Below are positions 2,517-11,500 of a stretch of 64,000 nucleotides of DNA, one piece after another. Made by a program: the position numbers. The number at the start of each line of letters is the position of its first letter. Positions within the stretch are counted from its first letter, which is position 1. The stretch is from Escherichia coli O127:H6 str. E2348/69 (GTDB lineage Bacteria > Pseudomonadota > Gammaproteobacteria > Enterobacterales > Enterobacteriaceae): assembly GCF_000026545.1 (NCBI RefSeq), contig NC_011601.1, one strand, 5' to 3'.

Positions 2517-5500
2517 TGCAGTAAATTTATCCAGAATCCGAACGATTTCAGACTGGATGGCAAGGGATTTCTCCGGATTATCCGGGCAGGGGATGGGGAT
2601 TAAGAGCTTTTTTAGGTCGCCCATTGGTAGACTAATTACCGGGTTGCCGACAATTTTTTTGCTATAGTCTTTAACTATTTTACTTGATTGTAATAAATAC
2701 GATAAAAATCTAGGCGCAATTTTTTCCTTAATTGGTTTGATAGTGTAAACGCCTTCTTTGATATTCCAATTTATAGGATTTTCTTCAATTACCGCGATGC
2801 GTCCAACCGTGCCGGTTCCGGAGAACAATATATCTCCAGCTTCTAAATTAGAACGACCATTTATTATTTTTAATGCTCTATCATTTACTCTGTCTGTTTT
2901 ATCAAGAAAGACAACTTTGCCATTCTGGATCTCACGAACAGTTACGTAATATCCTTGGGCATCTAATGTATTTAAGCTAAAATTTTGGCGTGGGTTCAAT
3001 CCCGTTTTTAAGGAATGGATAACTTCTCCCAACATCTTCCACTCAACCTCAACCCCATCCAGCAATTTTCCCAGATAACTTAACTCGCTCATTTTTGCAC
3101 CTCGCAGCCTTCAATTTCAGCCACAATCGCATCAATATCTTTACGCAACTGGTCGATTTTGCTAACCGTAGTTTTAAGCTCTGCATTTAGCTCAGCAATA
3201 TTGATAATTTCGCGGTTATCTTTCGCTTCTACATAGCAGCTCACCGACAGGTTATAGTCATTAGCGACAACGGTCTCAAACGCGACAGATTTCGCCAGAT
3301 GAGCAACATCTTCCTTGCTGGCAAATACCTGCATAATCTGTTCGATATGGGCATCGGTCAGGATATTGTTGTTGGTCTCTTTTTTGAATAGTTCGCTGGC
3401 ATCAATAAACTGAACTTTGGTATCCGTTTTATGTTTAGACAGCACCAGAATATTTACGGCAATGGTGGTGCCAAAGAACAGGTTCGGTGCCAGTGAAATC
3501 ACGGTTTCGACATAGTTATTGTCAACCAGATACTGACGGATTTTCTGCTCCGCGCCGCCACGGTAAAAAATGCCCGGGAAGCAGACAATCGCAGCACGAC
3601 CTTTGGCAGAAAGATAGTTCAGCGCATGTAATACAAACGCAAAGTCAGCTTTGGATTTGGGGGCCAGAACGCCAGCCGGGGCAAAACGCTCATCGTTAAT
3701 CAGCGTCGGGTCATCGCTGCCAATCCATTTCACCGAATACGGCGGGTTAGAAACGATGGCATCAAACGGTTTTTCATCTCTGAAGTGCGGCTCAGTCAGC
3801 GTATTGCCCAGCTTGATATCAAACTTGTCGTAGTTGATGTTGTGCAAAAACATGTTCATACGTGCCAGGTTATAGGTCGTATGGTTGATTTCCTGTCCGA
3901 AAAAGCCTTCTTCAATGATATGGTTATCAAACTGCTTTTTAGCCTGCAACAACAGTGAGCCGGAACCCGCTGCCGGGTCGTAGATTTTGTTAACGTTGGT
4001 CTGCCCGTGCATAGCCAGTTGTGCAATCAGCTTGGAGACGTGCTGCGGTGTAAAGAACTCACCGCCTGACTTACCGGCATTTGCCGCATAGTTAGAAATC
4101 AGGAACTCATAGGCATCACCGAACAGGTCAATCTGATGTTCGTTGAAGTTACCAAGTTTTAACCCTTCAACCCCTTTCAGAACCGCAGCCAGGCGGGCAT
4201 TTTTATCTTTAACGGTGTTACCCAGGCGGTTACTGGTGGTATCGAAATCAGCAAACAAACCTTTGATGTCTGCTTCTGAAGGGTAGCCGTAAGCAGAACT
4301 TTCGATAGCAACGAAGATGCTGTTTAAATCTGCATTCAGTCTGTCATTGGTATTTGCTTTCGCCGCTACGTTGCAGAAAAGCTGACTGGGGTAGATGAAG
4401 TAGCCTTTAGTTTTGATGGCATCGTCTTTAATATCATCAGTAATTACGCTGTCATCCAGTTTCGCATAACAGATACTGTCATCACCGGCTTCAATATAGC
4501 TGGAAAAATTTTCGCTGATAAAACGGTAGAAAAGCGCGCCCAGAACGTATTGCTTAAAATCCCATCCATCGACCGAACCTCTGACATCGTTAGCAATTTG
4601 CCAGATTTGGCGATGAAGCTCCGCGCGCTGCTGAAGACTGGTCATTTTTTATCCTTTGAATGTGTTTTTAACGTCGGCTTTTGCCGGGATTTTACCGGAA
4701 GTTTTTTGGTTTTTCAGATTTGTATGATGGTGAGGAGGGGATTCAGTACCAGATTGTTAGTGCATCTTATTCAGCATTCACCGTTTGAGTCAGGAGGCTA
4801 TTTTATATGCCCATCGCCCATCCGTAGGTGATCAGATAATTTATTGCGAGTCACCTTCCCGATTTTCAATCTCATTATTTACCCAATATTTCACCAGAGG
4901 ATAATCCGTCTGCTACTAACGGCGAGTGTATTTTTTTACGGATGAAAGATTATGCAAACAGAAGCTGAAGTCTTAACCGATCACAACGAGATAATTCGCT
5001 CGACCAATATTGAGCGTATCGTCACAGGACGTGATAGCGCACTGAAGCTGATAGCGACGCTAATCCAAAAACTGGATGATATCTCCAGTCTGACATCCAG
5101 TATTGGCGGTGATGTGGCTGGAACCTGGGGAATGCGTAATGGATATGCCTTTGACTGCTGGCTGATGCAACCAACCGACAAAGCGATGTCGGCGATCACC
5201 CGCAATATCGATCGCAGCATCTGGCGCGATCTCATGCTGAAGTCCGGGATGTTGACTCTGATGGATGCCGAAGCCCGCAGTCAGTGGGCAAAGAACCTGG
5301 AGGAGGGCGATCTCCCGGCGATTAGCGAAGCCAACATCCTGAGTACCTTTGAACAACTCCACCACAATAAGCATGATGTTTTCGAACGTGGGATTATCAA
5401 TGTATTTAAGGGATTGAGCTGGGATTACAAAACCAATAATCCCTGTTATTTCGGTAAGAAGATTATCGTTAACAATCTGGTGAAGCATGACCGATGGGGT

Positions 5501-8500: not shown

Positions 8501-11500
8501 ATGATGTTACGTACGTTAAAATCATTTCGTCATATTGCCTCCTCTGAATCTGGCGTCAAAATATCTAAAATGCCTCTGATGGATATCTTTATTCAACAAT
8601 TTATAGAGAGCGTGCGTAAGATTGTGCAGAGAGGGTTAAAACGTGACTATTTACGTCAGGAAGATAATCTTCCATGGATGAAAGGAAGATTACGGATCTC
8701 TGCACAATTAAGCAAAAACTGTATTAGGCGGGATCGTTTTCAGGTGGAGTATGACGAGTACAGCGTCAATCGTCTGGAAAACCGGATACTCAAAACTGCA
8801 ATCAATAAGATTAGTCGCCAGACCAGTAATCCACAATTATTACAGCAGATAACACAGCTGCAGTTTCACTTTGAAAATATCACGTCAGTTCATGATGCTT
8901 ATATAGCTTTCGAGCAGTTACACTTTGATAGACAAATGCATCACTATGAGCAAGCATTAGCGTGGGCGAAGATGATTTTATTGGGCGATTCTCCACACTG
9001 TATGTATGGGGATGTTAATGCTTTTTCACTGCTTTTCCCGATGGAGGCTGTTTTTGAATCTTTTGTGACGACATGGATGCGTTATCGTTATTATGATAAA
9101 TGGCGAGTGGACGCACAGGTAAGTTCAAAAAATCTGATTAGTTATAACGGTAAAGCTTTATTTAAGCTGCGGCCTGATATTTGTTTACGGCCTCGTAAAA
9201 GTACTACTGGTTCAGTTATTACCTGTGATGTTAAATGGAAGATAGTAAATGGCAGAAAGGACAGTCTTGAACAATCTCAAGCCGATCTCTACCAAATGCT
9301 TGCCTATGGATTGAATTACCAGGAGGGGGAAGGTGATATGATTTTGATATACCCCTATCATAACGGATTTAATCAGCCATCTCCTCATCCTTATGAATTT
9401 AGCCATCAGAAGGAAAATAGGTTACGTTTATGGGTTGTACCTTTCTTTATTGGCGAGAGTTTACAAACATCAGAGTTGCGTTTTCCTGGTGGGGCTGAAT
9501 TTATTTAGTATTTGTAGGCTATCTCTTTATACAATTTATTTGTCTATTTGTATGCACAAAATAGCCTACCTCACCCCCTAAAAACCTCTTTCCGATGCCA
9601 CTCTACAAACACCTCATAAGGGTAATTTTTACGTACCTGCGGCAAAGCAATAGTTTTCCCGTCAAAATCCCAGAATAGTTTCTCAACGATCCCTCCGCCG
9701 TTTACCGCATCTGATACCAGTACCCGCATATTTTCGTCCAGGCCAATCGATCCTTTATCAAAGGCTTTATGGTGAATTGCGCAAAGCGCCAGGCCATTAG
9801 GAATTTCACAAGGACCGCCGTGCTGTTTCCATTTTATATGCGCCGCTTCAAGCGCGACGGTGGTGTCGTCGTGGCGCATATTAAAGCCACATATCGCGCA
9901 CTGGTAGTTATAAGCGCGTAATACATTTTTGCGAAATAACGGGTCGCGCTGTTTACGGATTTGCTGGAGGTCAAAACCCAATTCGTCAGCAATTTCCTCC
10001 TGAATACTCTCGGTAAAATGCGCTTCGAGTATCTGTTGCGCCAGGGTATTGATGAGTTTTTTATTGCCGGTTACCAGGGCGTAGTGCTGTTCATCGAAAC
10101 CGCCTGCAACGCGGTGTTCGGTCAGTTCCTTCACTGGCGGTTGTCGGCTGCTCCCTGCTGTTGAGCAAAGCCCGGCATTGTGTAATTGCCAGAATCCGTC
10201 GCCTTGTAATCGCCAGAACGGCATATCAGGTCGGTACTGTGAACGCTGTGGCCCAAAACGTTCCAGTAAACTGTGCAGAGGTTCGTAGATTTCCGAGCCA
10301 TAATCGAAAAGGCGCGGATGTCCATTCAGGTATCCCGCTAATACGTATAGCAATAACAATGGCTTATGCGGCGCGCGCTGTTCACCCTTGTGCCAGATTT
10401 TTATATTGGCAATTGCCTGCTGTAGCGATTTACTGGAAGCCATTGATATCCCTGGCAGTGAAATAATTGCGATCATGCTCGCAAATTTTCTTCTGTTCAA
10501 GCCTGCAAGTGAAGATATATTACTTTGATCTCATTTGTTTTTTTGCTGCCTGCTCTGAGAACGTATAAGGATATTCCCCATGAATAAACTTCCCGACCAT
10601 CTTCCGCGGCGGTATATCATCGAAGCTATCCATTTATGGGATGCGGGAGAAACTCATCAGTTCCAGCCTGCACGGTTGTATTAGATTGAATATCATGGCC
10701 GACGTTACCCCTCGAAGGCGATTGCTGGCATCGCAGCGACATTGATGACGGGGACGCAATTTACCCCTGCGGATTTCACCGGCGGAATAAAATCTAAATG
10801 CGTCAAACTACTCATAGAGCAGGGATTTCATATTCATCAGGATAAAGCCGCTGCGGCTCCCATAGCCGACGTTCTGTTCCCGGATGAGTTGCCGTCGCAG
10901 GAGACCTACGTTGAAGGTGCGGCGATAAAGGTGACAGTAAACCGCTATGAACGCGATAAAAAGGTCCGAGATAAAGCGGTCGAATATCATGGATGCCAGT
11001 GCAACGTATGCGGCGTTGATCTGGTGAAGATCTATGGTGATATTGCTGAAGGCTTTATCCATATGCATCACCTGGTGCCGCTTTCAGCCATTAAAGAGGA
11101 TTACCAGCTGGATCCAGTTAATGATTTGCTGCCTGTGTGTCCTAATTGCCATGCGATGTTGCACCGACGCAAACCACCGTTTACGCCGGAGGAGTTAAAA
11201 GCGTTGATGGATGCGAATAAATCAAATTAATGAACGCTCACCTTTCGCGCCAAAACTGCAAAATTGCTTCTACAAACCTGTCAGAAATAATCCCCCGACG
11301 GGCTGCCGCGCTGAAATGACTGCTTCGCAGTGCCGTCGTCCAGTTCTCCGGTGACCGGTACGCTGAACCGTAATATCCCGTGCTTAAATCGTCCGGGTCT
11401 TCATCAGGCGCGTTCGTCAGTCCTCTTTCACCTTGTTGCTGGAAGTCGACGAAAATAATATTGGCTAAAACATTATTTTGATAATTGCCATAAATAGCTT

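Follow-up and report, generated by a model that had tools for sequence, protein, structure and literature searches.

The window analyzed here, a stretch of 64,000 nucleotides from the chromosome of Escherichia coli O127:H6 str. E2348/69 (RefSeq assembly GCF_000026545.1, contig NC_011601.1), carries at positions 6147–9508 a pair of genes encoding an McrB-like AAA+ GTPase and an McrC-like nuclease subunit. These two genes probably constitute a self-contained, modification-dependent (type IV) McrBC restriction module, equipped with a predicted glycosylase-like reading head and excluding the DUF4942 gene located upstream. The module comprises a complete McrB GTPase and an McrC protein with an intact nuclease motif, whose genes are translationally coupled and inherited as a unit.

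The annotation was taken from the RefSeq record of the E. coli E2348/69 chromosome (NZ_CP059840.2), which is 100% identical to positions 1–21700 of the window. Three open reading frames (ORFs) had been reported in an earlier note on this DNA, namely those of the two module proteins and that of a 277-amino-acid (aa) protein encoded upstream, and all were recovered by ORF calling at the same positions. The features of the module are as follows:

6147–8201, + strand: gene of the McrB-like AAA+ GTPase, 684 aa (RefSeq ‘McrB family protein’, WP_000249522.1; Pfam AAA_5)
6147–6788, + strand: N-terminal all-helical domain (aa 1–214), predicted to be HhH-GPD (Ogg/EndoIII)-like, without catalytic residues; candidate base-reading sensor
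6849–6872, + strand: Walker A, GPPGTGKT (aa 235–242), found by motif search
aa 291–300 of the McrB-like protein: FHQSFGYEEF segment
7056–7109, + strand: equivalent of the helix-2 insert beta-hairpin, LRAETTDDGNVKYEIKAG (aa 304–321), aligning with FRPRTDNEEKIRYVVEDG of Thermococcus gammatolerans McrB (TgMcrB)
7140–7469, + strand: alpha/beta insert of ~108 aa (aa 332–441) between helix 2 and Walker B
7488–7517, + strand: Walker B, LIIDEINRGN (aa 448–457)
7656–7670, + strand: McrB signature NxxD, MNTAD (aa 504–508)
7701–7712, + strand: RRRF segment (aa 519–522; R519, R520, R521 and F522 invariant), matching RRRF of E. coli McrB (EcMcrB) and TgMcrB
8198–9508, + strand: gene of the McrC-like subunit, 436 aa (RefSeq ‘McrC family protein’; Pfam McrBC, PF10117)
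9170–9241, + strand: PD-(D/E)xK nuclease motif of McrC, RPD327 ... D344-V-K346, found by alignment to E. coli McrC (EcMcrC)

The GTPase motifs named in the earlier note (GPPGTGKT, LIIDEINRGN, MNTAD and RRRF) and the FHQSFGYEEF segment were all located. Comparison of 33 homologues revealed that the GTPase motifs are all present and invariant or nearly so (within Walker A, residues G235, P236 and G238–T242 are invariant and P237 nearly so); the lid is also present. The attributes by which McrB proteins are recognized, i.e. Walker A, Walker B, NxxD and RRRF, are found together in this protein and align with those of EcMcrB and TgMcrB. Residue Y316 of the hairpin is likewise invariant in the 33 homologues. 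In the T. gammatolerans complex, the residues of the helix-2 insert surround the McrC finger at its tip and make contact with it (PMC7680126).

The McrC-like protein is matched over nearly its whole length (residues 66–387) by Pfam McrBC PF10117 (E 3.8e-100). Its RPDICL (aa 325–330) and CDVKWK (aa 343–348) segments align with ‘METDITIR’ and ‘IVDAKYYK’ of EcMcrC, and RPD327, D344 and K346 are presumably the catalytic residues. The stop codon of the McrB-like gene overlaps the start codon of the McrC-like gene as ATGA (GGAATGAAAT). Both this overlap and the D…D-x-K motif had been pointed out in the earlier note; the protein length given there (437 aa) should be corrected to 436 aa, the additional codon being the stop codon.

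The closest solved relative of both subunits is McrBC of T. gammatolerans (McrB, 6UT3, E 1e-52; McrC, 6UT5_G, E 4e-18). The scores obtained with the NCBIfam pair defining EcoKMcrBC orthologues (NF008457/NF007277) were far under the cut-offs, with 116.8 bits versus 637 for McrB and 107.8 bits versus 338 for McrC. Judged from their sequences, the two proteins are a diverged McrBC-type GTPase/nuclease pair and not an EcoKMcrBC orthologue, and in this the earlier note was right, as the N-terminal domain and the insert described below also indicate. RefSeq already annotates the locus at family level, and within the McrBC family it is an uncharacterised member. With EcoKMcrBC it shares the organization of a two-gene operon with overlapping genes, a GTPase carrying the four motifs listed above, an McrC with a D…D-x-K nuclease motif, and a position in a defence island next to a type I restriction-modification (R-M) system. 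It differs from EcoKMcrBC in its unrelated N-terminal reader, in the insert of ~108 aa before Walker B, in a further ~25 extra aa after the Walker A helix, and in an McrC that is ~90 aa longer at the N-terminus. Indeed, only the GTPase core could be aligned with McrB of strain K-12 (34% identity), in two blocks, 227–330 and 435–606, leaving residues ~331–437 unmatched. With T. gammatolerans McrBC it shares the helix-2 hairpin and an McrC of similar length, aligned almost end to end; unlike in the E. coli protein, 63 residues occupy the insert position in TgMcrB versus ~114 here (an excess of ~50 aa), and the N-terminal reader is different. The reader of TgMcrB is a YTH-like domain recognizing N6-methyladenine (6mA). 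A plasmid-restricting McrBC has been described in hypervirulent Klebsiella (PMC12456054); no Klebsiella proteins were present among the 120 best McrB homologues.

The earlier note had described the first ~220 residues of the McrB-like protein as mostly helical, and this description holds: ~214 aa are predicted to be all-helical. An AlphaFold2 model of this N-terminal domain (N-domain), built from an alignment of 52 diverse copies, contains nine helices (predicted local distance difference test score, pLDDT, 93.5; predicted template modelling score, pTM, 0.88) and matches the fold of HhH-GPD DNA glycosylases (Ogg/MutY/EndoIII), the resemblance being at the level of the fold only. The residues conserved across 66 aligned copies are W26, Y30, W53, N58, G66, R122, F124, P129, W162, N187 and W191, i.e. 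exclusively Trp, Tyr, Asn, Gly, Arg, Phe and Pro, and no column contains at least 85% Asp, Glu or Lys; therefore, the catalytic residues of a glycosylase are missing. The N-domain family is small, with 126 clusters at 50% identity in a set of 1.84 billion representatives, and its members are located directly before the McrB GTPase in all cases checked for a Walker A motif or an AAA domain. No family covering the N-domain was found in NCBIfam, PADLOC, PHROGs or Pfam, and neither MrcB_N nor EVE matched the 684-aa protein. PF28529, found on all homologues, was considered as the N-domain family and rejected, since it corresponds to McrB_lid.

A domain search showed that the N-domain is also present in complete proteins of 349–532 aa without Walker A. 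In these proteins (P0175, P0209, P0212, P0205, P0219, P0221, P0218 and others) it is followed by a nuclease-like C-terminal module, ‘…GG.AD.LV…LYEIK…GQLLEY’, with a D…ExK signature and weak matches to Pfam PDDEXK_9; one member of this family additionally contains Mrr_N and another DUF3427. Probably these are type IV enzymes consisting of a single chain. When PDB sequences were searched with a profile of the nuclease-fused family, nothing meaningful was found. The McrB-fused and nuclease-fused sets of domains were matched by hhalign over 193 columns with a probability of 99.9% (E 7.7e-36). Since the same domain occurs in two architectures, it is a portable module of modification-dependent restriction enzymes, and the occurrence of EVE, MrcB_N, Mrr_N and DUF3427 in its relatives fits such a context.

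Both the predicted fold and the pair of architectures agree with a recent description of an inactivated EndoIII/Ogg-like domain (iEndoIII), which serves as the sensor of PLD nucleases (END nucleases) restricting only hypermodified phages and which occurs, in addition, in fusions with a NucS-like PD-DExK nuclease and with ‘the McrB-like GTPase’ (PMC12191111, bioRxiv 2025). As in those fusions, a predicted HhH-glycosylase-like sensor devoid of catalytic residues is joined here to a DNA-cutting machine, and McrB-like GTPase and PD-DExK fusion types exist in both cases. The characterised END enzymes differ in being single-chain PLD nucleases with a C-terminal sensor and no NTPase. Moreover, the sensors of END^PaCF1 and END^Mag match the EndoIII/Ogg families in HHpred (PMC12191111), whereas the N-domain has no Pfam OGG-like or HhH-GPD match. 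When the N-domain profile was run against a set of 5.8 billion proteins, it recovered 10 close fragments only, too near to reach the END nucleases. The modelled N-domain may plausibly belong to the same sensor family as iEndoIII. The opinion expressed in the earlier note, that the recognition logic of this pair is not predictable, was too pessimistic, given the fold matched by the model and the reported iEndoIII–McrB fusions.

By analogy with the solved McrBC complexes, the McrB-like protein would form a GTP-bound hexamer, and one McrC would thread its finger through the hexamer pore, stimulating GTP hydrolysis; two DNA-bound complexes would then translocate in a GTP-driven manner, meet and cut both strands. 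Because the N-domain has lost the catalytic Asp and Lys and kept a conserved set rich in Trp, Tyr, Asn and Arg, it is predicted, from the fold match and by analogy with END nucleases, to flip out a non-canonical base and hold it without excising it. By the same analogy, the likeliest substrates would be hypermodified phage bases, e.g. glucosylated 5-hydroxymethylcytosine (hmC) or 7-deazaguanine derivatives. The chances seem about evenly balanced that base flipping and holding without excision, as suggested by the model, is the true mode of action and that hypermodified phage DNA, and not simple methylation, is the substrate. E. coli possesses Dam and usually Dcm methyltransferases. Together with the type I methyltransferase of the island, these enzymes modify the host DNA, and so their marks in native contexts cannot be targets of the module.

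The presence of ~110 additional aa before Walker B, noted earlier, was substantiated both by the K-12 McrB alignment and by two close metagenomic homologues (P0052 and P0056; 59–64% identity) that lack residues ~332–441 and pass directly from ‘…GIFKQICEDAA’ to KNYVLIIDEINRGN. The insert is therefore a discrete module of ~108 aa, corresponding to residues 332–441; it begins directly after the resumed helix 2, diverges quickly and falls into at least two sequence classes. No family was assigned to it in NCBIfam, PADLOC, PHROGs or Pfam, and its model has no structural relative that binds DNA. Insertions in the GTPase domain are frequent in McrB proteins, ‘likely encoding specificity domains’ (Bell et al., PMC11090510). 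The insert is an optional module that may provide a second DNA contact or act as a regulator. We tentatively put forward the possibility that the McrBC module reads hypermodified phage bases via an inactivated glycosylase pocket, while the ring insert would serve as an additional, exchangeable module for specificity or regulation.

The gene upstream of the module was described in the earlier note as encoding a 277-aa protein with no recognisable motif and as a potential member of a three-gene system. The former statement proved wrong, since residues 83–271 match Pfam DUF4942 (PF13708) with E 1.4e-68. The gene does precede the McrB-like gene on the same strand, and the gap between them is 361 bp (5786–6146) instead of the reported 360 bp. 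This region contains the following features:

4845–5814, + strand: DUF4942 block, an island-backbone relic outside the McrBC system (gene at 4952–5785 with its own 107-bp leader)
4952–5785, + strand: DUF4942 gene, 277 aa (RefSeq ‘DUF4942 domain-containing protein’; ORF call)
5815–6146, + strand: upstream region moving with the McrBC cassette (homology to other DUF4942 contexts stops at 5814)
6073–6102, + strand: weak sigma-70-like site (9 of 12 positions matched)

The DUF4942 gene is a leftover of a mobile-element backbone and not a third component of the system. It was found in 430 complete E. coli genomes. The only DNA that the window has in common with other DUF4942 loci (E. coli W, EC2641 and S22EC) is the block at 4845–5814, which extends from immediately behind the stop codon of cbtA in the E. 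coli W island to 29 bp past that of DUF4942. In these three strains DUF4942 is the last gene of the backbone DUF932-radC-yeeU-cbtA-DUF4942, and the cargo that follows it differs (AbiE, RhuM and CopG/RelE); a hot spot for cargo lies downstream of DUF4942, where cbtA-type islands end. DUF4942 homologues with 36–40% identity are present in 4306 plasmids, 92% of which are conjugative. In the one context inspected, that of IncI plasmid p80DF1 (locus L014, 5953–6801), the gene belongs to the leading region, where it follows psiB-psiA-ardA and adjoins nikA/oriT; such a position is typical of early-expressed anti-defence genes. PHROG 6263, designated ‘DNA methyltransferase’, includes the DUF4942 domain.

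Outside E. coli, DUF4942 is missing from the vicinity of six of the seven McrBC relatives, and only a remnant was found in the seventh. The McrB homologues of Enterobacter, Morganella, Vibrio, Aeromonas and Alkalimarinus (62, 53, 46, 39 and 40% identity, respectively) are each encoded directly ahead of an McrC gene, and no DUF4942 was detected within 6–8 kb of these loci, whose neighbours are housekeeping genes, hsdMS(R) or BREX genes. The Gibbsiella McrB locus (57% identity) also has no DUF4942, but only ~400 bp of upstream sequence was covered and no McrC was called. In Zymobacter sp. (CP179928.1; locus L015), a 64-aa C-terminal DUF4942 remnant (5619–5810; 42% identity) is located 190 bp upstream of an McrB gene whose product shares 78% identity with that of E. 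coli; these unequal identities indicate that two genes of different histories meet at a recurrent junction. Within E. coli, strain 2013C-3033 (locus L012, 5570–6967) carries an IS3-family element replacing codons 57 onward of DUF4942 and the first 78 intergenic bp; 56 DUF4942 codons are left, McrB and McrC are intact, and the homology upstream of McrB picks up again at 5864, past the IS3 element. IS3 insertions in the matched stretch are annotated also in strains LD91-1 and OkiPb01712. A sliding comparison of E2348/69 with strain 44 gave 98.8–100% identity over 6001–9500, versus 87–96% over DUF4942 and 93–98% over the flanks (hsd and phosphorothioate endonuclease). The McrBC pair thus forms a cassette with an inheritance of its own, which was found in 284–315 of 5426 complete E. 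coli genomes.

Several observations weigh against the module as proposed here. The Pfam HhH-GPD and OGG-like families matched none of the 53 scanned N-domain proteins, a profile search of PDB sequences with the N-domain alignment found no glycosylase or other meaningful match, and promoter-like sites in 4600–9700 were no more frequent than in shuffled controls. Furthermore, many relatives have extra domains before the N-domain (EVE, MrcB_N or a PUA-like ‘WNPK…GD.VYL’ domain) and some have EVE between the N-domain and the GTPase, and since these are bona fide readers, the helical domain could be an adaptor and not a reader. Were it such a scaffold, the target would be set by the ~108-aa insert or by the ring contacting DNA, as could be expected of a discrete, fast-diverging insert with several sequence classes and of GTPase-domain inserts in general (PMC11090510). 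We regard this as unlikely, since the invariant Trp/Arg/Asn set of the N-domain is kept in McrB- and nuclease-fused forms alike, which is typical of a ligand pocket and not of a spacer, the modelled fold is that of base-flipping enzymes, close homologues without the insert retain the N-domain, and the model of the insert resembles no DNA-binding structure. It appears similarly improbable that the module is a classical methyl-directed McrBC, cutting DNA with 5-methylcytosine (5mC), hmC or 6mA in contexts that the host methyltransferases do not make. Such a specificity is the default of characterised McrBC enzymes (5mC/hmC for EcMcrBC and 6mA for T. gammatolerans McrB; in part from PMC11090510), the module adjoins a type I R-M system as K-12 mcrBC does, and HhH-GPD enzymes such as ROS1/DME are reported to read 5mC (PMC3794587). 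The N-domain is, however, unrelated to the methyl-base readers of characterised McrB proteins, and the sole functional data on inactivated EndoIII-type sensors point to hypermodified bases (PMC12191111).

A single defence system made up of DUF4942, the McrB-like and the McrC-like genes is very unlikely and largely refuted. The three genes are adjacent on the same strand in 268 E. coli genomes, no terminator-like site was found in the 361-bp gap (the counts of such sites in 4600–9700 were not above shuffled controls), and the Zymobacter remnant also lies upstream of an McrB gene. These arguments are outweighed by the unrelated cargo that follows DUF4942 in other islands and its place as a plasmid leading-region gene, by its absence or truncation next to intact McrBC genes, by a divergence unlike that of the cassette, and by the end of the shared block so close behind its stop codon. 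It is even harder to envisage the pair as an RNA-targeting or abortive CoCoNuT-like derivative of McrBC and not a DNA restriction enzyme. McrBC relatives predicted to target RNA do exist (PMC11090510), and CoCoNuT systems resemble the present one in that they include homologues of McrB and McrC whose N-terminal regions are helical; in type I-A, the GTPase domain also carries a helical insert. The signature of the E2348/69 protein is NxxD (NTAD), whereas NxD marks the CoCoNuT branch (PMC11090510); its N-domain is modelled as a compact nine-helix globule and not a long coiled coil, its insert precedes Walker B instead of lying between this motif and the signature, it has no RNA-binding domains, and no CSD, HEPN or helicase partners are encoded at the locus. 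Membership in CoCoNuT (CnuB/CnuC) was rejected on the NxxD motif and the missing coiled coil. A two-gene McrBC restriction module with the N-domain as its candidate sensor is thus the reading that we prefer.

The remaining genes around the module are as follows:

up to 4645, − strand: hsdR, hsdS and hsdM (RefSeq)
9571–10443, − strand: phosphorothioated DNA-binding restriction endonuclease (RefSeq), convergent with the McrC gene
10580–11230, + strand: HNH endonuclease pseudogene with an internal stop (RefSeq), adjoining the phosphorothioate endonuclease gene
beyond the HNH pseudogene: nanS, nanM, nanC and fimB, in that order (RefSeq)

A site-specific integrase is annotated in RefSeq upstream of hsdR. 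This gene and the gene order indicate that the locus forms the distal end of an integrative island, a part rich in defence genes, and is located beside nanS-fimB. The phosphorothioate endonuclease matches NCBIfam NF045808 (437 bits) and is of the phosphorothioate-DNA-dependent SBD-HNH type. Counting this enzyme, the HNH pseudogene and McrBC, two or three modification-dependent enzymes accompany the type I system on the island. No match was obtained in an Rfam scan of positions 1–16000 of the window.

The central spacer of the adjacent HsdS (1866–3092, − strand) contains three TAEL repeats in tandem, LTAELTAELTAEL, near 2450–2500; such repeats are the hallmark of type IC (EcoR124I/II-like) specificity subunits. 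The number of TAEL repeats in type IC HsdS determines how long the spacer within the target site is. The nanS gene (sialate O-acetylesterase) is an uninterrupted ORF of 326 aa at 11238–12218 (− strand), and the RefSeq call is an incomplete pseudogene covering 11652–11996 only.

In McrBC, the textbook example of a type IV restriction enzyme, few reading heads have been characterised. About 5% of complete E. coli genomes, among them that of the prototype enteropathogenic strain E2348/69, carry the variant described here, and DUF4942 beside it is to be read as the marker of a cargo hot spot and not as a defence component. If the proposed recognition is true, this module would provide the first demonstration of hypermodified phage bases being read by an McrBC machine via an inactivated glycosylase pocket, and it would extend the modification-agnostic sensing of END-type enzymes to a translocating GTPase ring that is driven by nucleoside triphosphate and cuts at long range. 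It would then also help to predict which modified phages (T-even, deazaguanine) fail on such strains, and would be of relevance to phage therapy and to the transformation of clinical isolates.

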